A stretch of DNA of 64,000 nt from a bacterium (lineage in GTDB: Bacteria > Hydrothermota > Tepidihabitantia > B3-TA06). Location of the stretch: the NCBI GenBank assembly GCA_012517375.1, contig JAAYVC010000095.1:7061-71060 (forward strand), given 5' to 3'. The translations under genes and the position numbers were made by a program. This document shows positions 32,975-51,351 of the stretch, piece after piece. The notes under the pieces were generated by a model. The model was given only the letters and a program-made list of their open reading frames with translations. It did not search any database and was not told the DNA's origin. Each line of letters begins with the position of its first letter. The stretch's first letter is position 1.

Positions 32975-32993
32975 CTGTCCCCCTTATATTTGT

Positions 32994-35900
32994 TTATTTT
33001 AATTCATCCAACGCTTCCTGCGCCCGCATCCCGAAGGGGTCGTTGATGCCGCGCGAAGCGATGATGGCCTCGAAAATAACCCTTGCATCCTCAAGACGCT
33101 CGAGCTGAACGTAGCCCGAACCGGCCTGGAACCAGCTCTCGAGTCCCCACTGATCCTGCGGGAATTCATCGTGACATTTAAGGAACAGGGAGACCGCCTT
33201 CTCGGTATGCTCAGGGTCTGCAAAAGCGGCGTACGAACGGGCAGTCCAGTAAAGGAGCCTTGCTCTGTCCTTCGTGACGAGCGGAGTGGCCTTCTCGAAG
33301 TACGTGACCGCCTGCGAAAACTTGTACGCATTGTATGCCGTTATGCCTAGTTCGGTGTAAAGATCGCCGCGCTCCTCGGGAGAGCTGGATTCGTTCACAA
33401 GGGTTTCAAAATACTCGAAGGCTTTGTTGTATTCCTCCTTGTTCCTTGCAATAACGGCAAGATTGCGAAGAGCTGAGGAACGAAGATCAGGGTCCGCGAG
33501 AGCGTCGGAATAATGCAGGGCGGCGCTGTCAAGCTCCTGGATCATGTAGAAGAGCGTTCCCAGCTTGAAGTGAACGGCGGGTACAAGCTGGCTGCGCGGA
33601 AAGGCTTCGAGGAACGCCTTGAAATTCTCGAGGGCTTCCTCCTGCCTGCCGGCTTTTGCCGCAGTCAATCCTTTATAGTAGATGTAGTTCTCGTTGCGCA
33701 TGAGCGAACGAACGTTCGAAAGGGACGAAAGTACCTTGTCCGCTTCGTCAACACTTCCCGCGTTGAGAAGATAGCCAACCTTTTCAAGAAGCAGTGCGGA
33801 CTGGTCTCCTGGACTCAGCAGATCGAGCCTCATCCACAACGAATCCGCTTCCTTCAGTTCGCCGGAGCGGTAGAGCGCCGTCACGAGTTTGGATAGAACG
33901 AGCGTATCCGTAGGGTTGGCCGCATAGAGTTTTCGCAAGGTTGCGACGGCGTTTGAGTCCTCGCCGCCGGCAAGCTGGTGCTGAGCGACCAGGAAGTCGG
34001 CCTTTGATACAAGACTCGAATCCCTGCCTTCACTGACCAGACGTTCAAGCAGATGCCTTCCGAGTCTGTTGTGATCAACGAGGCTTAATCCGACTCCGGA
34101 CCAGTAAAGATATGGGTCCTTGAGCGCAGCGGGCCTCTGATGCATCAAGCTTTTGACATCGTCGACCTTTGCAAGCTGGCTCTCGACTTTCGCGACCTTA
34201 ATCCAGAACGAGATTTCGTCCTGGTACTCCGAATCCTCGAGAGCGCGTGCAAACTCATCCAGTTCGTTGTACTGCCTCAGCTTGAATATGAGTCCGAGCG
34301 CTTTGTGCCAGATATCCCGCGGTATCACGCCGAGCTCGACTGCCATGTTTCTGTAAAGCGAAAGCGCCTCAAGATTGCGTCCTCGAGACTCCTCTATCTC
34401 GGCCAGATTCTTTAATGCAAGATAATAGACAGTATCGTGGGGAGATATTGAAAGTATAAGGTTGAACTTCGCCGACGCGTCGCTTGTATCAGCCTCAAGC
34501 AGCGCCAGCTCCGCTAGCTCGTACAGCACGGGAAGATTGTAGGAGCTCTTCGGTTTTGTCAGATAAAGATTCTCCCACTCGCTTCGGGCCGCAACAGTAT
34601 CGCCAAGAGAAAGCTGGACACCGCCCAGAAGGAAACGGATTTCATCCGAGTAGCGGCCTTCGGGAAAGTGGTCGAGATAGTTGAGCGCCCTCTCCATCTT
34701 CTTCAGGGGATCCCTTAGTTCTATGAGGAAGAGACGGTACAGAGCGTCCTCGACGAGAGCGTCCTCAGGAAACTGCCAGTATAGATTCTCGTATCTCTCC
34801 CTTGCCTTGTCAAGCAATCTAACCTTGCCATCCTTCAGGTAAAGGCGCTCATAGGACAAGGCGGAGTAGTAAAACGCCTGAGGAGTCGCAACGGTATCAA
34901 GGAAGGAGATTGCGCCCTCGTAATCCTTCGCATCCTCGAAAAGAATCTTGCCCTTCTCCGAAGAGGTCGTTGCCCTTACCAGTTTTTTTAAGGCGGCATC
35001 GGCGTCTTTGAATTCAAAGTATTTAATGATGTCAGCTTCCCTCTGAACCTCGGAGCGGTTTACCGAATAAGGCGCCCTTTTAAGGAAATCGCTATAATAA
35101 TCGAGCGCTTCCTTGGGAAGTCCTCGCGAGTTTGCAAACCTTGCCCTTCTTAAGATGTCCTCTACCCTTTCGAATTTCGACAGAGAAAGAAGTCTATCGT
35201 ACGTCTGGAAATCTTTCTTTTCGCTGAGTGCATCCAGCACTTTTTCGAATTCATCCCATGTCTTGAAGCTGGCGTCTGTCAAAGCCCGTGCATCGTATTC
35301 GAGTCCCGATAGTATTCTTGCCTTCGCCTCGAGGGCGCGATCGGATTGAGTGAAGGAAAGCTTCTTTCGAGCATCGTCGTAAGCCTTAAGGGCTTTTGGC
35401 GTATTGCCCAGAAGCGAATAGGAAGAAGCAAGGGGAAGCAGGGCATCGTAATAATGCTGTTTTGAAGCCGATTCAAAGTACTCGACCGCATCCTCGTAGA
35501 GAGAGAAACTCTCGAAAAGTTTACCCAAGGCGTATGCCTGCGCCGGGTTGATTGTCGACGGCTCGCCCATTGCAAGACCCGCCTCCATTGAAGAAAGGCT
35601 GTCTGCCCTTGCAAGGGTTGCATCTATCTGAAGCGAAGCAACAGTTGCCGCAACCTGCGGATAGGTTTTTTCAAGATCGGCAAGATACGGTCTCAGGAGA
35701 TCTTGTCTTCCTGCGGCAAGAAGCATCTTTGCACCCATGAGCCGCAGATCAGGGTCGTCAATGGTCATATAGACATCGCGCGCGCGCTCGTACTCCTTTG
35801 CCTCCTCGAGTTTCATTGCGAGGCGAAGCTTCACGTCCTTCGCAGGTTCAAGACGCGGATATTTCATGAATAGTTCGTAGGATTTTGCGAGCTGCCCCAA

Positions 35901-36188
35901 TTCAAGGGATGAGATTACGCATCTTTCAAGAGCGTAAGGGTCAGGGTCGGAAGATTCGGCAAGATGGCGCTCAAGGTAGCGCAGGGCCTTGTCGTATCTC
36001 GAAAGCGCGAATGCGGACTGTCCGGCGATAAGAAGCGCGCTGTCCTGTGCCTCGAAACCGGGTTCAAGCAGAAGCTGTTCCATCGCGTAGAGCGCGGGTC
36101 CGTAAAGCCCGTTGCGGTAAGCCTCAACCGCCTGATCGAAATCCTCCCTGGGAGTGGAGAAAAGAAAAACGAGAAGCACAGAAAACAT
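32994..36188 (-). CDS. Large tetratricopeptide-repeat (TPR) protein, secreted or periplasmic.
   Basis: It is 1064 aa with a signal peptide. It has pervasive TPR-like A/Y/L periodicity (ALRYLER..., AIEYFE..., AVTYFEKA...). Confidence 0.7.
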   Translation of the reverse strand: MFSVLLVFLFSTPREDFDQAVEAYRNGLYGPALYAMEQLLLEPGFEAQDSALLIAGQSAFALSRYDKALRYLERHLAESSDPDPYALERCVISSLELGQLAKSYELFMKYPRLEPAKDVKLRLAMKLEEAKEYERARDVYMTIDDPDLRLMGAKMLLAAGRQDLLRPYLADLEKTYPQVAATVASLQIDATLARADSLSSMEAGLAMGEPSTINPAQAYALGKLFESFSLYEDAVEYFESASKQHYYDALLPLASSYSLLGNTPKALKAYDDARKKLSFTQSDRALEAKARILSGLEYDARALTDASFKTWDEFEKVLDALSEKKDFQTYDRLLSLSKFERVEDILRRARFANSRGLPKEALDYYSDFLKRAPYSVNRSEVQREADIIKYFEFKDADAALKKLVRATTSSEKGKILFEDAKDYEGAISFLDTVATPQAFYYSALSYERLYLKDGKVRLLDKARERYENLYWQFPEDALVEDALYRLFLIELRDPLKKMERALNYLDHFPEGRYSDEIRFLLGGVQLSLGDTVAARSEWENLYLTKPKSSYNLPVLYELAELALLEADTSDASAKFNLILSISPHDTVYYLALKNLAEIEESRGRNLEALSLYRNMAVELGVIPRDIWHKALGLIFKLRQYNELDEFARALEDSEYQDEISFWIKVAKVESQLAKVDDVKSLMHQRPAALKDPYLYWSGVGLSLVDHNRLGRHLLERLVSEGRDSSLVSKADFLVAQHQLAGGEDSNAVATLRKLYAANPTDTLVLSKLVTALYRSGELKEADSLWMRLDLLSPGDQSALLLEKVGYLLNAGSVDEADKVLSSLSNVRSLMRNENYIYYKGLTAAKAGRQEEALENFKAFLEAFPRSQLVPAVHFKLGTLFYMIQELDSAALHYSDALADPDLRSSALRNLAVIARNKEEYNKAFEYFETLVNESSSPEERGDLYTELGITAYNAYKFSQAVTYFEKATPLVTKDRARLLYWTARSYAAFADPEHTEKAVSLFLKCHDEFPQDQWGLESWFQAGSGYVQLERLEDARVIFEAIIASRGINDPFGMRAQEALDELK

Positions 36189-36197
36189 CTTGACCCG

Positions 36198-36944
36198 CTA
36201 CATGAGCATTCCGCCGTCCACCCTGATCACCTGACCGGTGATGTAGGAGGCGTCATCCGAACAAAGGAACTTGACGACCTTTGCAACGTCTTCCGGGGTG
36301 CCCGGCCGCTTCAGGGGAATCTGTTTGAGGAAGTATTCCTTGACCTCATCGGGCAGGACTTCCGTCATTGGCGTCTGGATATACCCTGGCGCCACGCAGT
36401 TTACCGTTATGTTTCTCGAGCCCAGCTCGCGTGCAAGAGTCATTGAAAAGCCAATTAGGCCCGCCTTGGATGCCGAGTAGTTTGCCTGGCCTACGTTTCC
36501 CATCTGCCCGACTACCGAACTCATATTGATTATACGGCCCCAGCGCTCCTTCATCATCGACTTGACGAAAGCCTTTGATACATTGAATGCGCCAGTGAGA
36601 TTGACCTTAAGCACCGTTTCCCAGGTATTTGAGTCCATGCGGATGAACAGCGTGTCGCGCGTTATCCCGGCGTTGTTTATTACTATGCTGACAGTGCCCT
36701 GCTCCTGCTCTATTCGCAAGGCAAGCTCATTCATCGCATCGAGAGATGTAACGTCGGCTTTGTAAAAAAAAGCCTCTCCTCCAGCGTCTTCGACGAGTTT
36801 CTTTGTTTCTTTGAGTCCTTCCTCGTTAACATCCAGAAGAATCTCGCGGTAAGTGCCTGCCAGTTCCAACGCTATTGACCTGCCTATTCCTGCTGCCGCA
36901 CCTGTTATCAATGCCCTTTTGGTTTCATTCACAATTTCCTCCAA
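36198..36944 (-). CDS. fabG: 3-oxoacyl-[ACP] reductase (SDR family).
   Basis: It has TGAAAGIGRSIA, NNAGITRD and YSASKAG catalytic-tetrad motifs. It is 248 aa. Confidence 0.85.
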   Translation of the reverse strand: MEEIVNETKRALITGAAAGIGRSIALELAGTYREILLDVNEEGLKETKKLVEDAGGEAFFYKADVTSLDAMNELALRIEQEQGTVSIVINNAGITRDTLFIRMDSNTWETVLKVNLTGAFNVSKAFVKSMMKERWGRIINMSSVVGQMGNVGQANYSASKAGLIGFSMTLARELGSRNITVNCVAPGYIQTPMTEVLPDEVKEYFLKQIPLKRPGTPEDVAKVVKFLCSDDASYITGQVIRVDGGMLM

Positions 36945-36950
36945 ACTGTA

Positions 36951-38681
36951 TCATCGAACAAGAGTCAGCGTACTCTTGCTCCGCTCTTTGACCAATCCGT
37001 TTTCGTACGTTTCGATTATATAGAAATAAAGTCCGGAAGCCACCGGTTTCTTGCCGTCGTTCCTGCCGTCCCAGTAAGCGACTCGACCGTAGACGCTTAT
37101 CTCAGCGGGCTTCTCATCGAGAACCCTGACCCGCTCGCCCGCGAGATTGTAGATGTAGACCTTGAAATCGGGGTACTGACCCTGGGTCTTTTCTTCGTCC
37201 GTAGGTTCGTAGACGATGGTTACTTTCTCCCTTTCATGCGCGTTGAAGGGATTAGGATAAGAGTAGGTTCTGCCGAGAAGAAGAGCCGCTATCTCTAATC
37301 TGGCCGTCATTATGCTGTCGGCTTCTGATATGAGGGATACGGAAGCGCCCGAAGGCACGCCGTCATAAAATCTGCTGGATGGCACCGAGGAGTTCGAGAA
37401 ACCGAAGCTGTCGGACTTCCACAGATCGGATGCCGAACCCTGGCCCGAGGTGAAGAGGAATTGAGGGCTGCCGTCGGCCTGCATAATTCCTACCAGAGGA
37501 TTCGAAAGATTGTTGTTGTTCTCCTGGGATTCATCGACATGGAGTACAAGAAGCCCGTCTCCGGGCAATCCCTTGTCGAATCCCTTGCGCCTTCGGTTTT
37601 CGGCAAGAAAATATTCTCCTATGCCGGCTTTCTCGAAAGACCACTCGGCGCCGGATGGGTTCGCAAATATCCTCCATGCCGAGGCGGATGAATTCGATTC
37701 GGCGAACTCCGCCGCATCAACCTCTTCAAGGGCTCCCCTCTCAAGCGACTGCGGTTCCACCCAGCCGAGGAGATACTTGCACCACGCAGAGGGATGAACA
37801 GGAGATGAACCAGCAGGCGTTCCGCCCCACGAACCAGATGCCATGAGGCAGAAGATGCCGAGACCTGCAGAGCCTGAGGATGGACCATCGGTGATGTAGA
37901 GGTCGGGCAAGCCGAATCCGTGGCCCCACTCGTGGCAGAATACGCCAATGCTCGATATCGTTCCATCGACGGACTCGCTTGAGCGCTCGGGGTTGATGGT
38001 GTAGACGTCTATCTTTATCTTCTGGCCCGGGTGATTGGGATCGGCATCGTTCGTCTCATAGACGCCAGGGCCTCCGTAGGACGCCCAGCCTGAGAGAGAG
38101 AACTCGTGGGACCAGATATCGCCGGTGATTCCGGTCTCCTCTGCTCCGTAGCCAACGTGTATGACGGTGAAGATATCTACATACCCGTCGCCGTCGTTGT
38201 CGTACAGCGAGTAGTCGACCGATGCATCGGACGCCTGACAGGCCTCAAGAACGAGCGCGCCTGCCGAACGCGCATAGTTGTTGCCTATGCCGTAGTTGTC
38301 GTCGGCATAGTAGGATGCAGTGTATTTTGCAGGATACGGCCCGACTACTTGGCCTCGCAGATCAACTTTTCCGTAGGAAACCTCTTCGTAATAGTCGTGC
38401 GCGGACCCGCTGGTCCAAGGTCCGTCGAAGAGCATAGCCTGAAAATCAGAGGCATCATACTCAGCCCCGACGTCTGAATACGACATGAACACTACAGGGA
38501 AACGCCTAGTTCCGGATACTGTCTGGATCTGTATGTTTCCAGTTGTTGTCCGAGCGAATCCCCTGGATTGATTCAGTCCCAGTTCTCCGTATCTTTGCCA
38601 GGCATTAGCTGATAACGTTACCCCCGCCTTGGGAGGCATTGACCACAGCAACGCAAGTGTCGCACACAGTGCGGCATTCAT
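36951..38681 (-). CDS. M6-family (immune inhibitor A-like) zinc metalloprotease with a T9SS-type C-terminal sorting domain.
   Basis: It has HEWGHGFGLPDLY (HExxH...D/E). It has a signal peptide. The C-terminus is GLYFYIIETYENGLVKERSKSTLTLVR. Confidence 0.7.
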   Translation of the reverse strand: MNAALCATLALLWSMPPKAGVTLSANAWQRYGELGLNQSRGFARTTTGNIQIQTVSGTRRFPVVFMSYSDVGAEYDASDFQAMLFDGPWTSGSAHDYYEEVSYGKVDLRGQVVGPYPAKYTASYYADDNYGIGNNYARSAGALVLEACQASDASVDYSLYDNDGDGYVDIFTVIHVGYGAEETGITGDIWSHEFSLSGWASYGGPGVYETNDADPNHPGQKIKIDVYTINPERSSESVDGTISSIGVFCHEWGHGFGLPDLYITDGPSSGSAGLGIFCLMASGSWGGTPAGSSPVHPSAWCKYLLGWVEPQSLERGALEEVDAAEFAESNSSASAWRIFANPSGAEWSFEKAGIGEYFLAENRRRKGFDKGLPGDGLLVLHVDESQENNNNLSNPLVGIMQADGSPQFLFTSGQGSASDLWKSDSFGFSNSSVPSSRFYDGVPSGASVSLISEADSIMTARLEIAALLLGRTYSYPNPFNAHEREKVTIVYEPTDEEKTQGQYPDFKVYIYNLAGERVRVLDEKPAEISVYGRVAYWDGRNDGKKPVASGLYFYIIETYENGLVKERSKSTLTLVR

Positions 38682-38685
38682 AACG

Positions 38686-39042
38686 TCACTTCTTAGTCTC
38701 CTCCTTCTCCTTCATCGAGCATCGGCCTTCAAAAAAGACGTTGTCCTGAATCACGAGCCCTTTGCATGTGACGTCGCCAGTCAGATTCGCCCCTGAATGC
38801 ATCTCAACCTTGCCGTGCGAATAGACGTTACCCTCTATTCTTCCGCCGACAAAGGCATCCTTGCAGCGAACGTCGCCTTTAACCCGGGCGCTTGAACCGG
38901 CCGTGAAGGTATCGGAGACGGTTATGTTGCCTTCGAACTCTCCGTCTATACGGAGACTGCCCTTAGTTTTAACGTTGCCTGTAATTATTGTCTCTTTTCC
39001 AATTATCGTATCAAGCTTGGCGTCTTTGCCAGTGCTATTCAT
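38686..39042 (-). CDS. Bactofilin family cytoskeletal protein.
   Basis: It is 118 aa with beta-helical repeats (GSLRIDGEFEGNITVSD...ARVKGDVRCKDAFVGGRIEGNVYSHGKVEMHSGANLTGDV). Confidence 0.8.
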   Translation of the reverse strand: MNSTGKDAKLDTIIGKETIITGNVKTKGSLRIDGEFEGNITVSDTFTAGSSARVKGDVRCKDAFVGGRIEGNVYSHGKVEMHSGANLTGDVTCKGLVIQDNVFFEGRCSMKEKEETKK

Positions 39043-39991
39043 TGTATACTCCTCCTTTATATTCGCGTTTGAGGATGAAAAGGTTAGAGGGGTCTATAGG
39101 GGTTCCTTTGTGGCGCACTTCGAAGTGAAGATGAGGTCCGCTCGAGCGGCCTGTGTTGCCCACAAAGCCCACTATTGTATTCATTTTTACTTTTTCTCCC
39201 TTTTTCACCGTAACAGACTGCAGGTGTCCGTAGAAAGTTTCGTAATAAGGCCCGTGTCGTATCTTAAGAAAATTGCCGTATGTGGAATCGACACCTACAT
39301 CGCTTACAACACCCTCAGCCGTAGCAAAAACAGGCTTCCCCTCAGACGTTGCAAAATCTATTCCGGGGTGCGATTGAGAAAAGCCACGAGAAACCTGGAA
39401 ACCTACCGTGGGTAGTACCTGAGGATAAAAACCTTCTACGTCTTTCTCTATAAGATTCGTGTCAGGAGGCAAGGTGTCCAGGCTGTCCAGCTTCGGGATA
39501 ATAGGCCTGTACTGAAAAACAAGTTCTGTTGAATCCACAGGTCCGGGAGCTTTGGCAAGTCCGAGCATTATCCTGAGCTGGTCGAGTTTCTTCTCGCTCG
39601 TCGCAAGTTCCTTTTTAAGAACGGGCAAGTTGACCAAACCCTCTTCAAGTTCGGAGTTTCTCCTTCGCAAGTAATGGACCTCAGCTACTTGTCCGTATAT
39701 TTGAAGGGAATAAATAAGCATGAAGATGACGCCCGCTACGAAAACTCCAATGCCTGATAGTATTGCCAGAACCGCGTTCCTCGAATAGGTTTTGCCGAAG
39801 TATTTGTTTGTGTAGTTGGGTGTGATATTGAAGGATATCCTCTTCGGGATACTAAGCGGTTTATCGTAACGCTTCGGGGTCCGCTCTACGGGTTTTGTTG
39901 TAGCTTCACCGTTTGGTGGTTTATCCAGCTTCAGCTCCTGCTGTTTTTTATTCGATTTCTGCTCTTTTGGCTTCATTTCACAAGCCTCCAT
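39035..39991 (-). CDS. M23 family (LytM-type) peptidoglycan endopeptidase, membrane-anchored with a coiled coil.
   Basis: It has an N-terminal transmembrane helix and coiled coil. The C-terminus is HPGIDFAT...GNFLKIRHGPYYETFYGHL...GNTGRSSGPHLHFEV. Confidence 0.85.
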   Translation of the reverse strand: MEACEMKPKEQKSNKKQQELKLDKPPNGEATTKPVERTPKRYDKPLSIPKRISFNITPNYTNKYFGKTYSRNAVLAILSGIGVFVAGVIFMLIYSLQIYGQVAEVHYLRRRNSELEEGLVNLPVLKKELATSEKKLDQLRIMLGLAKAPGPVDSTELVFQYRPIIPKLDSLDTLPPDTNLIEKDVEGFYPQVLPTVGFQVSRGFSQSHPGIDFATSEGKPVFATAEGVVSDVGVDSTYGNFLKIRHGPYYETFYGHLQSVTVKKGEKVKMNTIVGFVGNTGRSSGPHLHFEVRHKGTPIDPSNLFILKREYKGGVYNE

Positions 39992-40872
39992 ACGAGCTTA
40001 AGCAATGCATCGTAATCGGTTTTCCTTACCTTCTCGACCCCCTGAGCGTAGCGCTCTAATGGTATTCCTAATACGGCACATTCTAAACCCGCCCTTGCGA
40101 GAATGTCCGATGCCGATGAATGCTCTAAATTTATTGTATTCCTAACGACGACTTTCTCCTTCGCGGCAAGATCGCTTACATACTCCCTCGTGTTTGACGA
40201 GGGAATACTCCGCTGGGTTCTCACCGGCAACAACACGCTTCCCTCGCTGTTTTGGGATGGCGAAGGCATCGCTTCAAGAACGAACGTATTCGAGACGCTC
40301 ATACCCGCCATTGACGATGTAAGTCCCATATATCCAAGATGCTTCCCTGTGTAAAAAAGAAAGGCAACAGGCTTTTTGATTTCACCCGATTTTGATGCGA
40401 GTTCGAGCAGAATAGCCGAGGCGAGCCTGTCGGAAAGGGCGCTTGCATATATTGAATTATCTGTTTCGAAAAACTCGGGCGCCCGAACAAGAAACGTGCC
40501 TGCAGAAATATCGCCAGCGAAAAGTGGTTCGGCGCGCTGCTCCTTCCCGTCGCACGAAGGCGACACCAAATAGCGGTTTCCCTTTTCATCGAGGGCCCAG
40601 CCGCCTTCCTGAACCGGACCGGATGGAAGCGTTTTCAGATGCATTACGCCCTCAGCGTCCTTGTGTTCAACCACCCACGAACGCTGGTCGGTGTTAGTGA
40701 CAAAAAGCTCATAAGGCTCTTTCCCGCGGAAGCCCTTAAGATTTCCGAGATTGTCTATTGATACTTCAAAACCGGCATCGCTTAGTTCTTTCTTCAAATA
40801 CTCGACAAACAAAGCCTCCCTGCCCGTAGGTCCAAAAAGGAAGCAGACTTTCTTTAGCAATTCAACGTTCAA
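39973..40872 (-). CDS. M42 (TET/FrvX aminopeptidase) family paralogue that is predicted catalytically inactive.
   Basis: It aligns with the two downstream M42 genes. It has TNTDQ in place of H(M/L)D(E/Q)VG, and GKHLG in place of QEEVG. At 299 aa it is shortened. Confidence 0.55.
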   Translation of the reverse strand: MNVELLKKVCFLFGPTGREALFVEYLKKELSDAGFEVSIDNLGNLKGFRGKEPYELFVTNTDQRSWVVEHKDAEGVMHLKTLPSGPVQEGGWALDEKGNRYLVSPSCDGKEQRAEPLFAGDISAGTFLVRAPEFFETDNSIYASALSDRLASAILLELASKSGEIKKPVAFLFYTGKHLGYMGLTSSMAGMSVSNTFVLEAMPSPSQNSEGSVLLPVRTQRSIPSSNTREYVSDLAAKEKVVVRNTINLEHSSASDILARAGLECAVLGIPLERYAQGVEKVRKTDYDALLKLVWRLVK

Positions 40873-41899
40873 TGTAACGCCTCTTTAAATCATGTGTCAC
40901 TTTTTTAACTAGCTTTATTGCATTAATTATATCATCAGTGGATGAAATTGCAACAGGCGAATGTATGTATCTAGAAGGTACTGCCACAACGGCCGCATCA
41001 AGAGATTTAACCCTTACCGCAGCGCCTGCATCAGTACCGCCGACAAGAGGTCTTTTATACTGCCAAGGCAGGCCGCAAGCGTCCGCCGTATTCGTTATGA
41101 AATCCATAAGTCTTCTGCTCGCGACAACGCTTCCGTCCAGTATGGTAATGACAGGACCCTTGCCGATTCTCGGAAGCCGCGACGTGTCTTTATCGACCGG
41201 AACATCGCCTGCGCCAGTACCTTCAACGACGATTAGTATATCCGGCTTAACCCTTGCGGAGGCTATTCTTGCGCCTCGCAATCCCACCTCCTCCTGCACC
41301 GTCCAGATAAAGGTAACCGGTACATCATAGTCTTCGCGAATGAGTTCTGCGAGTATGTAGCAGCCGAGTCTGTCGTCAAAAGCTTTTCCCTTTATGATGC
41401 CGTCTCTTGCTTCGAAATTCGTATCGAAAGCGACCGGATCTCCTGGCGATACAAGGCTTTGGGCCTGCGCTTTTGATGATGCTCCTATATCCAACCTTAA
41501 ATCTTTTATGCCTATAACTTTTTTTGAATCCATGGCATCCACGAGGAAAGGCGGTACGCTGCCGATGACGCCAGGTATCCGTTCCTTTCCGACGGTCACT
41601 CTCTTCGCAAGAAGGACCCTTGGGTCTATACCGCCCAGAGGAGTAAGCTTGATATATCCATCTTCGTCCACCCTGTCGACCATCAGCCCGACCTCATCCA
41701 TGTGCGCTGCAAAGGCGAGATGAGGTCCGCGATTTCCCTTCCCCTTAGTCATATAGAGATTGCCGAGCCAGTCAGTTTCGACTTCATCGGCATAGCTTGA
41801 GACTTTGTCGTGGATGAGCGTCCTGACTTCATCTTCAAGTCCGGGAAGCCCGTTCGTGTCCGTCAGTTCTTTAAGGAATTCTCTGTCTAAAGACTCCAT
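40862..41899 (-). CDS. M42 family metallo-aminopeptidase (TET / FrvX-like).
   Basis: It has FAAHMDEVGLMV, FDDRLGCY, VQEEVGLRGA and YIHSPV, so all metal ligands are present. Confidence 0.8.
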   Translation of the reverse strand: MESLDREFLKELTDTNGLPGLEDEVRTLIHDKVSSYADEVETDWLGNLYMTKGKGNRGPHLAFAAHMDEVGLMVDRVDEDGYIKLTPLGGIDPRVLLAKRVTVGKERIPGVIGSVPPFLVDAMDSKKVIGIKDLRLDIGASSKAQAQSLVSPGDPVAFDTNFEARDGIIKGKAFDDRLGCYILAELIREDYDVPVTFIWTVQEEVGLRGARIASARVKPDILIVVEGTGAGDVPVDKDTSRLPRIGKGPVITILDGSVVASRRLMDFITNTADACGLPWQYKRPLVGGTDAGAAVRVKSLDAAVVAVPSRYIHSPVAISSTDDIINAIKLVKKVTHDLKRRYIER

Positions 41900-42927
41900 A
41901 TCTCCTTATCCGCAAACACTCTTGAAAGAAGAAGCGAGGCATTCTCGACATCCTTCATGTCCATCACCTCGACGGGCGTATGCATGTAGCGGACTGGTAT
42001 TGAAATAAGCGCCGCAGGCAAACCTTCGGCTATAAGGGTAATGACGTCCGATTCTGTGCCTGTAGAGCGTCCGAGAGGTTCCAGACCATAGGGCACGGAT
42101 AGCGTCTCAGCCTTATTTTTTATTGCCTCAAGATGCGGCTTTGACAAGACAGGACCAACGCCCAGCGTCGGGCCTGCACCCAAGGGAAATGAATAATCGC
42201 TCGATCCGTGAGAAATTCCGTATGTAACATCGGCGACAACGGCAAAAGAAGGATGAGCGGAGGACATGCTTCTTGCAGCGGATGAAGCCCCTAACATCGA
42301 GACCTCCTCCTGTGCGGATGCGACGAATAGAATCTTGCCGGGAAGCTTGCGCGCGTTGAGTTCCTTGGTAAGAAGCAAAGAAAGAAATACACCCGCCTTG
42401 TTATCCAGGCCGGCTGAGGTCACGAGAGAACCTTGAAGCGCCTTCGGTTTGGAATTCCAGACACACGGGTCTCCGGTTCCGACAATCCCTCTTAGCTCCT
42501 CAGCCTTCATACCGACGTCTATGTAAAGCTTGTCTGCAGGAATTGTCTGTCTGCGCTCTTCTTCGGTGACGAAGTGCGGCGGGCTCATACCTACAACGCC
42601 CCTTAGAGCTTTTTTCCCAAGCACGGTTAGCTCCTGTGAAACCACTATCCTAGGATCGATGCCGGGCATCTTGACGTATATGTAGCCTTCATCATCTACA
42701 TGTTCGACGATCAAGGACACCTGGTCAAGATGCGCGAAAAAAAGCGCCGTTCTCTCACCCTGGCCTATCTCCCAGCTCAGGCCTGAAGTACCAAGGTCAA
42801 AAGAACGGACGCTAATCGAATCAAGATACTCTTCAAGAAATCTCTTGGCCATTCCTTCGTGACCGGATGGAGATGGGATCTCAAGAAAACTGAAAAACAA
42901 ATCCCGGTTCATCTGGTTTTGAACCAC
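41887..42927 (-). CDS. M42 family metallo-aminopeptidase (TET / FrvX-like).
   Basis: It has FFAHLDQVSLIV, LDNKAGVF, AQEEVSMLGA and YMHTPVE. Confidence 0.8.
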   Translation of the reverse strand: MVQNQMNRDLFFSFLEIPSPSGHEGMAKRFLEEYLDSISVRSFDLGTSGLSWEIGQGERTALFFAHLDQVSLIVEHVDDEGYIYVKMPGIDPRIVVSQELTVLGKKALRGVVGMSPPHFVTEEERRQTIPADKLYIDVGMKAEELRGIVGTGDPCVWNSKPKALQGSLVTSAGLDNKAGVFLSLLLTKELNARKLPGKILFVASAQEEVSMLGASSAARSMSSAHPSFAVVADVTYGISHGSSDYSFPLGAGPTLGVGPVLSKPHLEAIKNKAETLSVPYGLEPLGRSTGTESDVITLIAEGLPAALISIPVRYMHTPVEVMDMKDVENASLLLSRVFADKEIWSL

Positions 42928-43748
42928 TCTATCAGTCTTGACAGTTCCGATTCGTCAGAGAAGAGAAGTTCTAGACGACCGCCCTTTCCGGAACGTAGGA
43001 GTCTTACCTTTACACCAAGCTTTTCTCCAAGGAATTCTTCAGTGGACGCCCTTATTCCGTCATGCTGCTTGCGCCGCTCTGGCATCGTTACCCTGTTTGA
43101 CGACTGCGCTATCTTCTCGACAGACCTCACGGTAAGTCCTTCGCTCACTATTCTGTCGCATACCTTTTCGATAAGCGATACGGACGTGATGGAAAGCATC
43201 GCCCTTGCATGTCCCTCCGATATCTTGCCCTCTTCAATGAACAATCTGGCTTTTCGCGGAAGCGACAGCAACCTCATGGTGTTCGCAACAGTGGAGCGGT
43301 CCTTTGCGACAATCCTTGCTATCTCCTCCTGGGTCATGGCGAACTCCTCGCTTAACTGCTTGTATGCAAGCGCAGACTCAATAGGATTAAGGTTCTCCCT
43401 CTGAAGGTTCTCAACCAAAGCAAGCGCCAGCATCTGCTTCTCGGTAACTTCCTTGATGACGACCGGAACGTCAGTAAGACCTGCGAGCTGGGACGCCTTA
43501 AGCCTGCGCGAGCCAGCTACAAGCTGATAGCCTGAGCCGTGTTTTCGAACGACTATCGGCTGCAGCACCCCGTGCTCCCTTATTGAAGCTGCAAGTTCGG
43601 CGACCTCCTGGCCCGTCACCTTTCTCGGCTGGTACGGGTTATCGGCAATGAGCTTTACAGGAAGCGTGAGCGGCGGTTCCTTTGAGTCCTTCTGGACGGT
43701 TGCAGGGATCAGCGCTTCGATTCCCTTTCCTAGCGCTTTTCTAGCCAC
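42909..43748 (-). CDS. parB: Chromosome partitioning protein ParB.
   Basis: It has GLTDVPVVIKEVTEKQMLALALVENLQRENLNPIE (ParB box) and a helix-turn-helix. Confidence 0.9.
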   Translation of the reverse strand: MARKALGKGIEALIPATVQKDSKEPPLTLPVKLIADNPYQPRKVTGQEVAELAASIREHGVLQPIVVRKHGSGYQLVAGSRRLKASQLAGLTDVPVVIKEVTEKQMLALALVENLQRENLNPIESALAYKQLSEEFAMTQEEIARIVAKDRSTVANTMRLLSLPRKARLFIEEGKISEGHARAMLSITSVSLIEKVCDRIVSEGLTVRSVEKIAQSSNRVTMPERRKQHDGIRASTEEFLGEKLGVKVRLLRSGKGGRLELLFSDESELSRLIEWFKTR

Positions 43749-44496
43749 GCGATATCACCTCGCTCGCAAGCTCGAGATAAGCCTGGGCGCCTCTTGAGTT
43801 GATGTCGTAGTGAAGGATGGTCTGGCCGAAGCTCGGAGCCTCGGCAAGGCGAACGTTACGCGGAATCATAGTTACGAAAACCTTTCCCGAGAAATACTTT
43901 CTTACCTCCTCTGCGACCTGGTCTGCAAGATTCGTGCGGGGGTCGTACATAGTCAGAAGCACACCGAAAATCTCGAGACCGGGATTTAGGGACTGCCTGA
44001 CGCGGTTGAGGGTATCAGTAAGCTTGCTGATTCCCTCAAGAGAATAGTACTCGCACTGAACCGGAATAAGCACGCCCTCGGCAGCAACAAGCGCATTGAG
44101 GGTAAGGATGCCGAGCGAAGGCGGAGCATCCATAATGACGTAATCGTAGGAATCAAGCCCTTCTATCGCTCGTTTAAGTCTTGCTTCCCTTGCCTCTGAG
44201 TCGATCAGCTCTATCTCAAGGCCTGCAAGATCGAGCGACGCCGGTATAATGTCAAGGTACTTTACAGAAGTACCCTGTACGGCTTCGCGGGTACGCTCCG
44301 GGTCCATGAATATCTCGTATGTAGAAAGCTTCGGCTCGCGGTTGTCTATCCCCAGACCGGATGTGGCGTTTGCCTGGGCATCCACATCGATGAGAAGAAC
44401 CCGTTTTTCGGCAACCGCTAGCGCGGCCGAAAGGTTGATGGCGGTGGTGGTCTTGCCGACCCCGCCCTTTTGGTTGACTACGGCAATCCTTCTCAT
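43741..44496 (-). CDS. parA: Chromosome partitioning ATPase ParA/Soj.
   Basis: It has the deviant Walker A motif MRRIAVVNQKGGVGKTTTAINLSAALA. Confidence 0.95.
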   Translation of the reverse strand: MRRIAVVNQKGGVGKTTTAINLSAALAVAEKRVLLIDVDAQANATSGLGIDNREPKLSTYEIFMDPERTREAVQGTSVKYLDIIPASLDLAGLEIELIDSEAREARLKRAIEGLDSYDYVIMDAPPSLGILTLNALVAAEGVLIPVQCEYYSLEGISKLTDTLNRVRQSLNPGLEIFGVLLTMYDPRTNLADQVAEEVRKYFSGKVFVTMIPRNVRLAEAPSFGQTILHYDINSRGAQAYLELASEVISRG

Positions 44497-44499
44497 TCT

Positions 44500-45810
44500 T
44501 TATGTTATTGAATTATCACCGCTTGTCAACAAAACCGCGGGAGACATAAGTTCCGGAATCTTGTATAAGTCGTCTGCAGAGACTTCCTTCTGCTCACTGG
44601 TTGTCATGTTTCGCAAGATAAAGCGTCCTTTAGCTATCTCATCGTCGCCTATTATCAGTACATACCTTGCGTTTCTTGCGGAAGCGCGCTTAAGGAGTTT
44701 GGAAAGACCTGCCTCGCGGTATTCGAGCTGGACATGGATTCCTTTTTCGCGGAGCCTGAAGGCGAGTTCCAGGCCAAAGCTTGCTCCACGTTCACCTAAA
44801 GGAAGCAAAAGAAGCGGTATGGCGTAACCCGGGAATTCGAGAATCGATTCCCCCTTCGAAGCAAGGAGCGCGCGTTCGACACCGAAAGCGAAACCTATGC
44901 CAGGAGCCGGCTGCCCGCCCATCTCCTCCATGAGGTAGTCGTACCTGCCTCCGCCGCAGACGGTATCCTGGGCGCCGAGTGTTGTCGATTTGAATTCTAT
45001 GACGGTACGGGAATAGTAGTCGAGTCCTCTGACCAGACGAGCGTTTTCGGTATACGGTATCGAAAAGGTGCCGAGACCTCTTTTGACGCCTGAAAAATGC
45101 GCCGAACACTCCTCGCACAGATATTGTGATTGCGACGGAGCGTCCTTCAGAATATTCTGACACCTTTGGAGTTTGCAGTCGAACACCCTTAAGGGATTGC
45201 GGGTCATCCTCAGCTTGCAGTCGTCGCAAAGGTCTTCTTTATGCTTTTCGAGAAAGGCCACAAGGGTTGACGTATAGCCGGGCCTGCACTCTCTGCATCC
45301 TATCGAGTTGAGTTCGAGGTAAAGCCCTGCGATTCCTATGTTCGAGAAAAGGTCGTATCCGAGTTTTATCAATTCGACGTCGACCCCAGACTCTGCCTCG
45401 CCCAGAATCTCGACGCCTATCTGCGTGTGTTCTCGGTAGCGGCCCTTTTGCGGTTTGTCCTGCCTGAACATGGGCATCATGTACCACAACCGTATGGGTA
45501 GTTTGAGATTGTTTTCCAGTACGGCGCGTATAACAGAGGGGGTTCCCTCGGGACGAAGTGCAAGTTCCCTCTGAGCCATATCCTTGAAGTGGTACATCTC
45601 CTTGGTGACGATATCGGAAGATTGACCAGTGGAACGTTCGTAAAGCTCGCAGGATTCGAATGTGGGCGTCAAAATTGGCAGGATTCCGGCCTTAAGGAAG
45701 TATCTTGAGACGAGTTCCTGGAGCTCCTGTCGCGCGAAACCCTCTCTCGGAAGGACGTCTCTGGTTCCTTTAACCCGCTGAAAGCGCACGTTTCTTTCTC
45801 CAGTAGCCAA
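44500..45810 (-). CDS. hisS: Histidine--tRNA ligase.
   Basis: It has FQRVKGTRDVLP (motif 1 region), class II motifs and GGGRYD. It is 436 aa. Its true start is possibly an internal GTG. Confidence 0.9.
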   Translation of the reverse strand: MATGERNVRFQRVKGTRDVLPREGFARQELQELVSRYFLKAGILPILTPTFESCELYERSTGQSSDIVTKEMYHFKDMAQRELALRPEGTPSVIRAVLENNLKLPIRLWYMMPMFRQDKPQKGRYREHTQIGVEILGEAESGVDVELIKLGYDLFSNIGIAGLYLELNSIGCRECRPGYTSTLVAFLEKHKEDLCDDCKLRMTRNPLRVFDCKLQRCQNILKDAPSQSQYLCEECSAHFSGVKRGLGTFSIPYTENARLVRGLDYYSRTVIEFKSTTLGAQDTVCGGGRYDYLMEEMGGQPAPGIGFAFGVERALLASKGESILEFPGYAIPLLLLPLGERGASFGLELAFRLREKGIHVQLEYREAGLSKLLKRASARNARYVLIIGDDEIAKGRFILRNMTTSEQKEVSADDLYKIPELMSPAVLLTSGDNSIT

Positions 45811-46102
45811 GAAAATATCCGGTTATTATGCCTGCTTCGTTGAATGCTATATCCCAGAAGCCCACCTGCCTTCCAGGAGCAAGAAGTTGAAGAAACTCGT
45901 TTCCTGCTCCGAAGGCGAGAACGAGAATTGCTGCCCACCATCCGAATGACCTTGAGGTAAGGTATCCCAGATACGAAAATGCAAAAAAATGCAGTATCTT
46001 ATCCATGGGGAATTTGTGAGCAGGCGTTATCCTTCCCGGTATGAGGGAAAGCGCGACCAGGAATAACACCCATACGATAAGATATACGTGATACCGCCGC
46101 AT
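45770..46102 (-). CDS. VanZ-like family membrane protein.
   Basis: It is 110 aa with 3-4 transmembrane helices. It has DKILHFFAFSYLGYL and NEFLQLLAPGRQVGFWDIAFNEAG. Confidence 0.55.
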   Translation of the reverse strand: MRRYHVYLIVWVLFLVALSLIPGRITPAHKFPMDKILHFFAFSYLGYLTSRSFGWWAAILVLAFGAGNEFLQLLAPGRQVGFWDIAFNEAGIITGYFLGYWRKKRALSAG

Positions 46103-46103
46103 C

Positions 46104-46721
46104 CTAACCCCTTATTATCTCTTTAATCCTCATGAGGCGAGTGAGATTCCCTCGCTCCATCTCCGAAAGCTTCAGGTTAATGTAGGAGATCGTTTCCTTG
46201 ATATTCGGGACCACTATGTATTCCAGGGCATTCACGCGCCGCCGGGTACGCTCAATCTCTTCGGCAACAAGTTCAAGTGTCTTCTCCTTCTCGGCCAATA
46301 GAACCATCTTTTCGAGAACGGCGAATATAGCTTCAAGCGAAAGGTCAAGCTCGGCAGACGTTTCGAGAAAACCGTAGCACCGCATTTTTCCTTCGAGCCT
46401 TGGCTTGAAGGTCGGCGCCTTTACGTTAAGGATTCTTTTCGTCCCTGATTCTATTTCGAGTTTCACAGACGGAAGCGACGTTGCGATATCGGCCGAGCGG
46501 GGATTACGCTGATTCTTGGCCAAAGCGTATCTGGCAAAGGCTTTCCTCAGTGCGTCCTCCACCTCCTTCCGGAGAGCCTGAATCTCGTCGACAAGAGAGT
46601 AGACATTGCGCATGAGCTCTTCGAGCTTGTCCTTGAGAAGTTTGTGGCCTCGCTCCGCGATAACGAGTCTCCGCCTCAGCTTCAGGAGCTCCATCCTTGT
46701 CGCGTTGACGTTCAATCTCAC
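46104..46721 (-). CDS. atpD: V-type ATP synthase subunit D.
   Basis: The N-terminus MRLNVNATRMELLKLRRRLVIAERGHKLLKDK is a hallmark of the V/A-type D subunit. Confidence 0.9.
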   Translation of the reverse strand: MRLNVNATRMELLKLRRRLVIAERGHKLLKDKLEELMRNVYSLVDEIQALRKEVEDALRKAFARYALAKNQRNPRSADIATSLPSVKLEIESGTKRILNVKAPTFKPRLEGKMRCYGFLETSAELDLSLEAIFAVLEKMVLLAEKEKTLELVAEEIERTRRRVNALEYIVVPNIKETISYINLKLSEMERGNLTRLMRIKEIIRG

Positions 46722-46772
46722 GAAAACCTCTCTTCCGCAGATTGAGCAATTCTCTTATAAAAGGTCTTCAAC

Positions 46773-48266
46773 TCAGTCCTTCTTCGAATCCTTGCCGGCA
46801 AGGGCTGCATCGAAGTATTTCGCAAGATTCTCATCACGGACGCGCTTCATTTCAGATCTTGGAAGCGTGGTCAGGAGCTCCCAGCCCAGGTCGAGCGTAT
46901 ACTCTATTGTTCTGTTCTCATATTCCGACTGGGAGATGTAGCGGCGTTCGAAATCCTCCGCAAACTTCATGTAAAGCTTATCTATATCCGTGAGAGCGGC
47001 CTCTCCGAGAATGACCGCAAGTTCCTGAGCCTCTTTCCCTCTCGCGTAAGCCGCATATAGCTGATTGAAGGAATCGGCATGATCCTCACGAGTCTTGCCT
47101 TTGCCGATGCCCTTATCCTTCAAACGAGAGAGAGAAGGAAGAACGTCTACGGGAGGCGCGACGTTCTTGTTGTTGAGGACTCGGGAGAGGATTATCTGAC
47201 CTTCGGTGATGTAGCCTGTGAGGTCGGGAATAGGATGGGTCTTATCGTCCTCAGGCATGGTAAGTATGGGTATGAGGGTTATGGAACCCTTAGAGCCTTT
47301 GATTCTTCCGGACCGCTCATAGATAGTCGCAAGATCAGTGTAGAGATAGCCGGGATAACCGCGCCTGCCGGGAATCTCCTTTCTTGCTGCCGAGATCTCG
47401 CGAAGCGCCTCGCAGTAGTTGGTCAAATCGGTCAAGATGACGAGAACGTGGTAATTCTTTGTAAAAGCCAGGTACTCGGCTGCGGTGAATGCCACGCGCG
47501 GTGTTGCGATTCGCTCGATTGCCGGGTCATCGGCAAGATTAAGAAAAAGGACGGTGCGTTCAAGAGCGCCAGTGCGTCGGAAATCCTCGATGAAAAACTC
47601 TGCCTCCTCGAAGGTAATGCCCATTGCTCCGAAGACGACTGCGAACTCCTCGCCCGTTCCAAGAACCCTGGACTGCCGGGCAATCTGCGCGGCCATGCGG
47701 TTGTGAGGAAGACCGGAACCTGAGAAGATGGGCAGCTTCTGACCGCGAACTAGCGTGTTGAGGCCGTCGATGGCGGAGATGCCTGTCTGGATGAACTCGT
47801 TAGGGTAGCTTCTTGAGAAAGGATTGATAGGAAGACCGTTTATGTCCCTGAACTCCTCGGGTATGATTGCGGGAGAGTGGTCGCGCGGCCTGCCAAGACC
47901 GTCGAATACCCTGCCTAAAAGCTCTTCGGAGACACCCAGGGTGATGCCCTTACCGAGAAAGCGCACGCGTGTTTGGCCTATTTCGATTCCGGACGAACCC
48001 TCGAATATCTGGATAAGAGCCTTATCCTGGTTGACCTCAAGCACTCTGCCCCTGCGGCGTTCGCCTGACGGAAGGTAAATCTCAACGAGTTCTTCGTATT
48101 TGACTCCCTCCACTCCCTCGACAAGAAGCAAAGGCCCTGCAACTGAGGAGATAGTCTGGTAATCGGTTATGCCTTTAAAGGCTCTAGTTACATCTGATGC
48201 ATCACTGGTGTCGCTGGTGCTACGGGTGTTACGGGTATTACTGGTATTACGGGTGTTACGGGTCAT
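46773..48266 (-). CDS. atpB: V-type ATP synthase subunit B, with an unusual ~27-aa low-complexity N-terminal extension.
   Basis: The core from [36 protein letters not shown]... onward aligns with the NtpB/AtpB consensus. The N-terminal [26 protein letters not shown] is encoded by 9-bp tandem repeats. Its ATG overlaps the atpA stop. Confidence 0.9.
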
Positions 48267-50035
48267 GATACATCCTTTCTCAAAGCTGAAATATCTGTGG
48301 TGATTTCTTCTTCGATTTTCGTGATGCTTTCCCGTTCGGCTTCAGGCAGGTATCTGACTCGGGCTATCTTCTCCCTTACGGGCAGATTGATAAGGCCGTC
48401 AAGCCCGGCGCCCTGTTCGAGCGCCTTCTTCGATTCGCGGAAGTATCTGAGTACAAGGGAGAGCATGCGCGCCTGCTTATCAAGGCTTGCGTATGTGTCA
48501 ATCTCGTGGAATGCGTTTTGATGCAGGAAATCCTCGCGGATAGAGCGCGCGGCTTCCATTATAAGGCGCTCGTTAGGCGAAAGGGCGTCAATGCCTATGA
48601 GACGGACTATCTCAGCGAGATCGGCCTCCTCCTGAAGAAGCCTCATGGCTTCCTTTGAATCCTCGAGGAACTTCGGACCGATGACCGATTTAAGGGATGA
48701 GGCTATTGAGTCAGAGTATAAGGAGTACGAACGAAGCCAGGAGATGGCAGGAAAATGGCGGGCGTAGGCAAGGTTCGCTTCAAGCGACCAGAACACCTTC
48801 ACGACGCGAAGGGTCGCCTGCACTACAGGGTCGGAAAGGTCTCCTCCGGGTGGCGAAACTGCTCCTATTACGGAAAGCGCGCCACGCCTTGAATCCGAGC
48901 CAAGGCACTCGACAAGCCCGGCCCGCTCGTAAAACTCGGCGATACGGGCGGAGAGGTATGCAGGATAACCTTCCTCGCCCGGCATCTCCTCGAGCCTGCC
49001 GGATATCTCGCGCATTGCTTCTGCCCACCTTGAGGTCGAGTCTGCCATAAGGGCCACGGAGTAGCCCATATCGCGGAAATATTCTGCGATAGTTATTCCT
49101 GTGTAGACTGAGGCTTCGCGCGCAGCAACCGGCATGTTAGATGTGTTGGCTATGAGTACCGTCCGTTTCATAAGGGGTTCTCCGGACTTGGGGTCCTTGA
49201 GTTCAGGGAACTCGATGAGAACGTCGGTCATCTCGTTACCGCGCTCTCCGCAGCCCACGTACACGATGACCTCGGCATCAGCCCATTTAGCAAGCTGGTG
49301 CTGGATTACCGTTTTTCCAGAACCGAAAGGTCCTGGAACGCAGGCGGTTCCTCCCTTACCCAGAGGGAAAAAAGCATCAACCACGCGCTGTCCGGTCGAA
49401 AGTATCTCATGCGGAGCGTATTTGCGTTCATAAGGTCTGGGCTTGCGGACCGGCCAGCGTTCGAGCATTGTCACTTCAGCCTTTTTCCCGTCGGCATTCT
49501 TGATAACGGCAACGGTTTCTTCGATTGTAAAGCTGCCGGAGTTTATCTCCACTACCTCGCCTGAAACTCCGGGCGGAACCATTATCCTGTGCTCTACAAG
49601 GATGGTTTCTTTTACCGTACCGAGGATATCGCCGGGTTTTACGTTCTGGCCTTTTTTTGCAGAAGGATTAAACTGCCACCTGCGCTGTCTTGAAAGAGCA
49701 GGGACTTCCACACCGCGGGATATGAATGCTCCCGTTTTTTCACTGATGTCGGACAATGGACGCTGGATGCCGTCGTAAATGGCTTCCATGAGTCCTGGAC
49801 CAAGCTCGACTGAAAGAGGTTCGAAGGTCGGATACACGGGTTCTCCCGGGCCTATCCCACCCGTATCTTCGTAAACCTGAATGGACGCTCTGTCGCCTGT
49901 AAGACCGATTATCTCTCCGACCAGACGTTTTTCCGAAACCTTAACCACATCGTACATCTTCGAGGTGCTCATACCCTCTGCGACAACTAGGGGTCCTGAA
50001 ACCTTAACTATGCGACCGGTATCTTCTTTTCTCAC
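48263..50035 (-). CDS. atpA: V-type ATP synthase catalytic subunit A.
   Basis: It has Walker [10 protein letters not shown] and the typical non-homologous-region insert. It is 590 aa. Confidence 0.95.
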
Positions 50036-50373
50036 TTTTGCTCCCAGTAGACATCTACTCCAATGGCCTTTTTGATTAATTCTCTCAAGCGTTCTAAAGC
50101 GTACCTTTCTCCTTCACCCAGCGAAGGAATAGGGATGTAGGTCGGGAAAACCCCGCCCTGCCGCTTTAGAAGAAATTCTCTTAAATGAGGATAAAACTCT
50201 TCGGCGTAAAATACTATCTTGTAGTCGCTCTGAGAAAGAGCTTTCGCTCTTTCAAGAGCATCCGATTTTCCTGCAACAATACCTTTAAGACCTACCGCTC
50301 TGAATGGCTCGAGCAGCTCCTTCGGTCCCAGAATACAGGCTTCGCTCGAAACCTTTTCAGTCAAACCATGCAA
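50032..50373 (-). CDS. atpF: V-type ATP synthase subunit F.
   Basis: It is about 100 aa. It has ...[23 protein letters not shown]..., a V-ATPase F-like GF.LAGI region. It lies between C and A as in ntp operons. Its start may be non-ATG. Confidence 0.65.
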
Positions 50374-51343: not shown

Positions 51344-51351
51344 GTGGAAGG

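Follow-up and report, generated by a model that had tools for sequence, protein, structure and literature searches.

Why would a bacterium keep an aminopeptidase gene that seems to have lost its active site, in tandem with two intact paralogues? This question is raised by positions 39,973 to 42,927 of a stretch of 64,000 nucleotides from an uncultured bacterium of candidate division WOR-3 (contig JAAYVC010000095.1, assembly GCA_012517375.1), here called the window, in which three aminopeptidase genes of the M42 (TET) family follow one another on the minus strand. We call them A, B and C in the order in which they are read; their coordinates are collected in Table 1. TET/M42 enzymes are large self-compartmentalised peptidases. 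Little is understood of what they do in the cell and of how they are regulated, and the one demonstrated case of hetero-assembly concerns two archaeal enzymes, both active. We argue here that C is very probably a conserved, dead paralogue corresponding to the third gene of a tandem M42 trio. The explanation that we favour, at slightly less than even chances, is that this dead protein is kept because it assists A and B, without catalysing anything itself, when oligopeptides are broken down in the cytoplasm.

Catalytic residues of the three paralogues

All three proteins pass the Pfam cutoff for PF05343 (Peptidase_M42) of 23.2 bits, with 188.8 bits for A, 273.5 for B and 35.2 for C, and none of them reaches the NCBIfam equivalog cutoffs. 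The alignments of A and B with solved TET/M42 structures cover their full length, the best match in the PDB being 1vho for A (151 bits) and 1vhe for B (235 bits, followed by 2fvg, which is TM1049, with 216 bits). C aligns weakly, over its whole length.

M42 peptidases have been defined by seven residues, namely H62, D64, D173, E205, E206, [DE]228 and H307 in PhTET1 numbering (PMC12516491). We located their equivalents in C by aligning it with HMMER to PhTET2 (1y0r) and PfTET3 (4x8i), for which the residue numbers in the output agree with the published ligands, and cross-checked the result with MAFFT. The set is complete in A (H66, D68, D175, E207, E208, D233 and H316) and in B (H66, D68, D175, E203, E204, E226 and H313), where the glutamate at the D235 position is as in TM1049-type proteins. 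A and B are thus predicted to be intact binuclear metallo-aminopeptidases.

In C only two of the seven are left: D62, at the position of the second-shell residue D70 of PhTET2, and E200, at the position of the M2 ligand D235, where either acid is normal. At the remaining five, the M2 ligand H68 is replaced by N60 (in the motif TNTDQ), the bridging ligand D182 by S147, the general base E212 by K177, the M1 ligand E213 by H178 (in GKHLG) and the M1 ligand H323 by A276; in other words, the general base and four metal ligands are lacking. An aspartate, D148, stands one residue past the lost bridging aspartate. With two of the seven residues left, C is an M42 homologue but not an M42 peptidase by the published definition, and we infer from these substitutions that it no longer hydrolyses peptides. 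Concerning the five conserved glycines of the same definition, compared by MAFFT (PhTET1 G44, G77, G85, G86 and G211), B has all of them, A has three (with S48 and P88 at the others, the first and third positions being uncertainly aligned for A) and C has three (with P83 and S84).

The asparagine at position 60 is found in all five near-identical members of the cluster to which C belongs, from many contigs, and is therefore not a sequencing error. It is limited to the lineage of the window, the relatives within the C family keeping the first histidine (H60). The bridging aspartate, the general base (which becomes K or R) and the last histidine are lost throughout the C family.

A preliminary description of the window had proposed three tandem and overlapping M42 genes of one operon, the first two with all their metal ligands and the third shorter and deprived of the first histidine and of the Glu-Glu pair. 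All the open reading frames (ORFs) are where it had placed them, the ligands of A and B are as it said, and the loss in C goes farther than it had seen, since the bridging aspartate and the C-terminal histidine are gone too. C is shorter because its PDZ-like domain has suffered two deletions, as 85 residues separate the equivalents of D70 and D182, against 105-107 (107 in A and B). The same description had named two ways in which C could turn out to be an ordinary enzyme, ligands that are present but shifted and an upstream extension restoring the motifs. Aligned to PhTET2 and PfTET3, however, the ligands are not simply shifted. As to the start of C, no earlier initiation codon lies between it and an in-frame stop, its residues 2-3 align to the TET N-terminus and its homologues begin with MNV(E/D)LL, which leaves no room for an upstream extension.

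Fold, conservation and selection on the third protein

The AF2 model of C has a pLDDT of 71 and a pTM of 0.74. Compared with solved TETs, it gives a TMq of 0.84 to the M. jannaschii TET 9qr6 (E 9e-21), 0.81 to 1y0y (PhTET2), 0.79 to 4x8i (PfTET3) and 0.79 to 4p6y (TmPep1050), with a probability of 1.00 in each case. In this model C keeps the two-domain fold of a TET subunit, made of a catalytic and a PDZ-like domain.

The closest relatives of the locus are found in metagenome-assembled genomes (MAGs) of candidate division WOR-3. The order ParA-ParB-A-B-C-M23 peptidase-bactofilin-M6 peptidase-SDR-TPR protein is the same in the window and at the related loci L001/L002, L003, L004 and L005/L006, and an undamaged C of full length is encoded by no fewer than five diverged WOR-3 genomes, with identities of 33-49%. 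Comparing the window with L001 and L003, respectively, amino-acid identity is 53% and 56% for A, 62% and 60% for B, 49% and 36% for C, and 73-92% and 65-83% for the neighbouring genes with a full-length match.

Since synonymous sites are saturated (proportion of synonymous differences, pS, about 0.75), the nonsynonymous distance dN and the ratio pN/pS were used instead of dN/dS. Against two relatives C has a dN of 0.50 and 0.64, A one of 0.40 and 0.41, and B one of 0.32 and 0.38, the values for C being only 1.2-1.7 times those for A and B. Because dN lies well below saturation while synonymous sites are saturated, C is, by these comparisons, under purifying selection, somewhat relaxed. Among five members of the C family 62 columns are invariant, including the motifs DQRSWVVEHKD, GWALD and LPVRTQxSIP. 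C therefore combines the features by which pseudoenzymes are recognized: lost catalytic residues, a kept fold, purifying selection and conservation across species.

Two gene calls in the relatives should be noted. The C orthologue P0004 (L001/L002, 7929-8828, CBFGKC010000006.1) is called with 275 aa in the NCBI annotation of the MAG, a start that is too late, as tblastn and ORF analysis find the full 299 aa encoded. The position-1 gene is called with 375 aa in L005 (4873-6000) and L006 (1562-2689), against 343 aa elsewhere, which could be either an N-terminal extension or a miscalled start site.

A three-gene M42 module and its degenerate third genes

A word-indexed search for homologues found five relatives of C, while an exhaustive search with a profile of the C family revealed a wider set of degenerate proteins. 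In the latter, six clusters (at 50% identity) score above 286 bits, and the next scores, which belong to hundreds of M42 proteins, do not exceed 100 bits. We then took a census of catalytic residues in 148 aligned sequences, that is the top matches together with A, B and C. The full catalytic set is present in 77 of them, and 62 are without three or more of the catalytic residues. These 62, which we call degenerate clusters (clustered at 50% identity), come from many lineages.

The degenerate proteins that were looked up on their contigs are, in seven cases out of seven, the third gene of an M42-M42-M42 row, beside two intact M42 genes and in unrelated neighbourhoods. P0006 lies in the WOR-3 context. 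For P0017 and P0162 a Na/Pi cotransporter gene is found upstream and a gene for an ACT-domain protein downstream; P0010 is near VanZ, P0013 near a Mur ligase and MiaB, and the trio of P0027 directly follows an Opp-type oligopeptide ABC transporter. P0011, an intact relative of C, is likewise a third gene. The Opp linkage is seen at locus L012 (1-6966), where a trio whose third gene is degenerate stands immediately 3' of OppC, two ATPases and SBP_bac_5. It ties the module directly, on the genome, to the catabolism of imported peptides and supports a role in that pathway.

To obtain a less biased sample we anchored a survey on the position-2 gene, with the best 80 of more than 593 metagenome matches, chosen by two exact motifs, so that its frequencies are indicative only. 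Architectures were counted at the loci with enough flank on both sides, about 46. A full trio with an intact third gene is present at 39 of these, a full trio with a degenerate third gene at one (L058), the third M42 gene is missing at four and the position-2 gene stands alone at two. Two further degenerate third genes were seen in the survey, in L063 and L086. In the intact trio of L016 the best match of gene 3 is TmPep1050/TM1050 (296 bits) and that of gene 2 is TM1049 (281 bits).

Profile hidden Markov models (HMMs) were built separately for positions 1, 2 and 3 from 35 intact trios. On these three profiles, in this order, A scores 261, 162 and 151 bits, B 246, 405 and 259 bits, and C 22.5, 37.4 and 54.7 bits. 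The window thus holds three adjacent, co-directional M42 genes, each of which scores best on the profile of its own position. The position-3 profile is also the best one for all C-like proteins of WOR-3 and for 54 of 61 degenerate clusters, with scores that descend continuously from 422 bits to the 55 bits of C. On this evidence A, B and C are the form taken in WOR-3 by a widespread M42/TET module of three genes with conserved positions, a context absent from the preliminary description, and C is a probable descendant of the position-3 enzyme.

Seven degenerate clusters (P0035, P0066, P0067, P0091, P0093, P0105 and P0149) score best on the position-2 profile, and the loss of the active site is therefore not restricted to the third paralogue. 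In neighbour-joining (NJ) trees the proteins of position 1, position 2 and intact position 3 separate, and the degenerate proteins, with their long branches, fall close to the root and form two groups or more. We did not rely on these trees to decide between single and multiple loss, and used the position-specific HMM scores instead. The third genes of L027 (3480-4484) and L079 (2650-3633) group with position-1 proteins in the NJ tree; some trios may come from a different duplication.

What is conserved across the 62 degenerate clusters is a series of scaffold positions shared with active enzymes: G17, E19, D40, G43, N44, D62, G125, G183 and D286 in C numbering. The aspartate equivalent to PhTET2 D70 is present in 62/62, K or R occupies the general-base position in 31/62, and the catalytic positions vary. 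No new conserved residue of catalytic type was found among the 62 clusters. Because scaffold residues alone are conserved, without such a new residue, we consider that catalysis was lost with the fold kept, rather than a new enzyme having arisen.

A non-catalytic partner of the two intact enzymes?

If C is kept as a partner of A and B, its most likely form would be a C2 dimer that associates with building blocks of A, of B or of both, giving mixed TET-like particles or, considering its altered interfaces, a modified assembly. C would then tune assembly, substrate access or specificity rather than cut. The Lys/Arg at the general-base position might stand in for the missing charge of the metals and hold the active-site loop in an assembly-competent state. 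The partnership is supported by the occurrence of degenerate genes beside two intact M42 genes whatever the neighbourhood, by the TET fold that C keeps and by the purifying selection on it, and PhTET2-PhTET3 and YtoP-YsdC are precedents for assembly between M42 paralogues. Moreover, most degenerate position-3 proteins from other lineages than WOR-3 keep the interface residues (Q206 in 47/53 and R/K212 in 46/53, PfTET3 numbering), which makes their continued assembly plausible. Physical co-assembly of C itself with A or B, taken as a separate claim, seems to us a real possibility that falls somewhat short of an even bet.

Several observations weigh against this partnership. PhTET1, PhTET2 and PhTET3 each form homo-dodecamers, and co-operonic paralogues can act as separate homo-oligomers. 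The H60A and H307A mutations of TmPep1050 reportedly impair the formation of dodecamers. Structures of these two mutants and of a dimeric form are deposited as PDB 5ne6-5ne9, according to the PDB titles, and in 4p6y TmPep1050 was solved alone. In PfTET3, where M2 is the catalytic metal and Glu207 the base, the loops that carry the M1 site (Asp177, Glu208, His314) make up the interfaces of the dimer and of the oligomer, and removal of M1 destabilises the dodecamer (PMC4745047). Both M1-specific ligands, two of the three of this site, are lost in C. Of the PfTET3 interface residues Q206, R212, R311 and Y312, B keeps four, A three and C none: in the WOR-3 C family Q206 is replaced by G or N and R212 by M, S or A (9/9 in both cases), and in the C of the window R311 has also become E and Y312 has become R. 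The PDZ-like domain, which mediates dimerisation, is about 20 residues shorter in C. C is moreover the fastest-evolving gene of the block, and its AF2 model is moderate, with low confidence at residues 176-182, the former active-site loop.

The overlaps between the genes (13 nt for A/B and 11 nt for B/C) give only weak evidence for co-assembly. They count for little because ParB and A, as well as C and the M23 peptidase gene, also overlap, and because gaps of 20-100 nt separate the genes in many intact trios elsewhere.

Since the interface residues are replaced and the PDZ-like domain is trimmed, a canonical hetero-dodecamer is only one possibility for the C of the window; a modified assembly or a stand-alone non-catalytic role is possible as well. 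Judged by these residues, the C family of WOR-3 is the extreme case among degenerate third genes. A more general form of the partnership can be formulated, in which selection has time and again favoured dead 'pseudo-TET' subunits in the M42 trios of bacteria: the position-3 paralogue, of leucyl-aminopeptidase type, would repeatedly have been made non-catalytic and, co-assembling with the two active paralogues, would control assembly, gating or specificity, with WOR-3 as the most derived instance. In this generality we hold the proposal to be rather unlikely.

Among the alternatives, the one that survives best is that the products are independent, although we regard it, too, as on the unlikely side. 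A and B would form homo-dodecameric TETs of their own and C a homo-oligomer or dimer of its own, with a non-catalytic task (binding or sequestering peptides or amino acids, or a chaperone-like or regulatory function); C would stay out of the A/B particles and share the operon only because of a common pathway. The position-3 orthologues that were produced and crystallised alone (TmPep1050, in 4p6y and 3isx) agree with this, as do the missing canonical interface residues and the partly lost PDZ-like domain of the WOR-3 C family, whose three invariant motifs suggest a family-specific surface or pocket. These motifs are, however, absent from the wider set of degenerate position-3 proteins, so that no common new function is apparent. 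The constant company of two intact M42 genes (7/7) is what would be expected of a partner, and outside WOR-3 the interface residues are kept.

It is improbable that C works instead with the M23 peptidase and the bactofilin in the cell wall or cell shape, for example as an inactive and translationally coupled adaptor of the LytM-type enzyme. An in-frame ATG of the M23 gene at 39976 and the stop of C share the sequence ATGA, 4-nt overlaps occur in L004, and the order C-M23-bactofilin is kept at all WOR-3 loci examined. This linkage is nevertheless limited to the WOR-3 lineage: in the other lineages examined the degenerate third genes stay with the two M42 genes and the M23/bactofilin pair is missing beside them. 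ParB also overlaps A, so that overlap means compact packing here, and neither a signal peptide nor a membrane segment is present in C, whereas the N-terminus of the M23 protein is hydrophobic over one segment.

Could C still be an enzyme, with a remodelled site in which His60 (in its relatives), Asp62, Asp148, His178 and Glu200 bind one metal for a different or weaker hydrolysis? Among the five closest members of the family His178 does not vary; Asp148 is invariant, [DE]200 is kept and His60 is present in the relatives. On the other hand, the base Glu212 is K or R in all nine core family clusters, the C of the window is also without His60, His178 becomes N or Y in P0006-P0009, and apart from the structural D70 the 62 degenerate clusters have no conserved residue of catalytic type, which leaves this alternative with quite a low probability. 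That C is a functionless, slowly decaying pseudogene is very improbable, since against its rapid evolution (49% and 36% identity, compared with 53-62% for A/B and 65-92% for the neighbours), its weakest Pfam score and its public annotation stand a frame open at full length in at least five diverged genomes, a dN far below saturation at saturated synonymous sites, the 62 invariant residues, a conserved start and ribosome-binding site, and a confident fold match.

Gene organization and genomic context

The start of A more likely lies at ATG 42912, giving 341 aa and the N-terminus MNRDLFF... found in orthologues, than at GTG 42927; with the former start, A and the stop of ParB overlap in the sequence ATGA. 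ParB is the upstream neighbour of the trio at every WOR-3 locus. AAGGAG stands just 5' of the ATG of B, and C starts with TTG, with AGAGG 7 nt upstream. Promoter and terminator scans gave hits at or below the expectation from shuffled sequences and are uninformative on the limits of the operon, and Rfam and tRNA scans returned no matches.

Table 1. M42 genes and neighbouring features of the window
Feature	Positions	Strand	Remarks
Putative V-type ATPase subunits	46104-50035	-	Upstream of the HisRS-ParA-ParB-M42 block
ParB (context)	42909-43748	-	Pfam ParB_N and HTH_ParB; stop codon shared with the probable start of A
Gene A, position-1 M42/TET aminopeptidase	41887-42927	-	346 aa from GTG 42927
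Gene B, position-2 M42/TET aminopeptidase	40862-41899	-	345 aa
Gene C, position-3 (TmPep1050-type) M42 paralogue	39973-40872	-	299 aa
M23 (LytM-type) peptidase (context)	39035-39991	-	Pfam M23, 112.8 bits
Bactofilin (context)	38686-39042	-	Pfam Bactofilin, 95.8 bits; after the M23 gene
M6 (immune inhibitor A-like) metallopeptidase	36951-38681	-	C-terminal CHU_C/type IX secretion-like domain, 26.5 bits (Pfam cutoff 27)

The M23 and bactofilin genes, which together span 38686-39991 directly after C, overlap by 8 nt, and the pair is kept in all WOR-3 loci. It resembles known bactofilin/M23 modules for cell shape. The product of the M6 gene, with its secretion-like domain just under the Pfam cutoff, suggests a secreted protease adjoining the cytoplasmic peptidase trio. 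The order of the putative V-type ATPase subunits is that in which subunits A, B and D are annotated in L001 and the other WOR-3 relatives. GC content changes in steps along the window, from 0.39-0.46 (positions 1-30000) to 0.50-0.54 (30000-50000, including the M42 block) and 0.46 (50000-56000), which could reflect an island, a mosaic or an assembly join.

Novelty and significance

In the literature that could be searched, neither an inactive subunit of a TET/M42 enzyme nor this conserved M42 trio is described. The M42 family and mixed TETs are known; a pseudo-enzyme conserved as the third gene of a common M42 module is not. A family survey of 2025 defines the members by the seven catalytic residues and so filters degenerate copies out (PMC12516491), and in public annotation C is a 'hypothetical protein' and one other degenerate member an 'endoglucanase'.

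The tandem M42 trio is thus a common bacterial module whose third member is without its active site in many lineages and nevertheless remains beside two intact ones. A dead subunit that forms part of the particle, or controls it, would offer a natural handle on assembly, substrate access and specificity of TETs; M42 would join the hydrolase families with functional pseudoenzyme subunits, and a self-compartmentalised protease would have a built-in regulatory subunit, which is undescribed for TET enzymes. Should co-assembly prove false, the correction of the two annotations would still be useful. Pseudoenzyme paralogues as such are common; the present case, with its proposed mechanism, is a clear and testable lead for specialists of TET enzymes.

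Comparison with known systems

By sequence and gene order the closest system is TM1048/TM1049/TM1050 of Thermotoga maritima (1vho, 2fvg and 3isx/4p6y), where three M42 paralogues carry consecutive locus tags. We take 1vho to be TM1048, and assume from the locus-tag numbering that the three genes are adjacent and co-oriented. A matches 1vho best, B matches 2fvg strongly, and C is best on the profile of position 3, whose intact genes match TmPep1050 best. TmPep1050 (TM1050) is an active, cobalt-stimulated leucyl aminopeptidase (Dutoit et al. 2012, PMC3511314). In our alignments all the Thermotoga proteins have the full catalytic set, whereas C has lost five of the seven residues and is about 30 residues shorter.

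By mechanism the closest system is the hetero-dodecameric 'peptidasome' PhTET2-PhTET3 of Pyrococcus horikoshii, the template for a putative mixed particle with C. The genes of PhTET2 and PhTET3 are not known to be in tandem. Both subunits are active there, with complementary specificity, a criterion on which C differs from this type: it is inactive by its residues and lacks the M1 ligands and the canonical interface residues. Homodimers of PhTET2 and PhTET3 co-assemble into hetero-dodecamers in ratios of 6:6 and 8:4 (Appolaire et al. 2014, PMC4220976).

Among bacteria, the paralogous M42 proteins YtoP and YsdC of Bacillus subtilis form an interacting pair, and both chains match the model of C structurally. 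The genes ytoP and ysdC are not known to be in tandem. YsdC (1vhe) has the full catalytic set and, unlike the trio of the window, the pair is without a reported pseudo-enzyme member. The interaction was found in cells by crosslinking combined with AlphaFold-Multimer (O'Reilly et al. 2023, PMC10090944; PDB 9a5r). The statement of the preliminary description that such an arrangement, with an inactive subunit, is known mainly from archaeal TET systems has to be corrected, as the archaeal case consists of two active enzymes and a bacterial pair has been reported.

A pseudoenzyme subunit is exemplified in another family by Csd2 of Helicobacter, an inactive M23 protein that is paired with Csd1. As in the trio described here, a dead paralogue is kept beside an active one and presumed to act through assembly, although fold and family differ.

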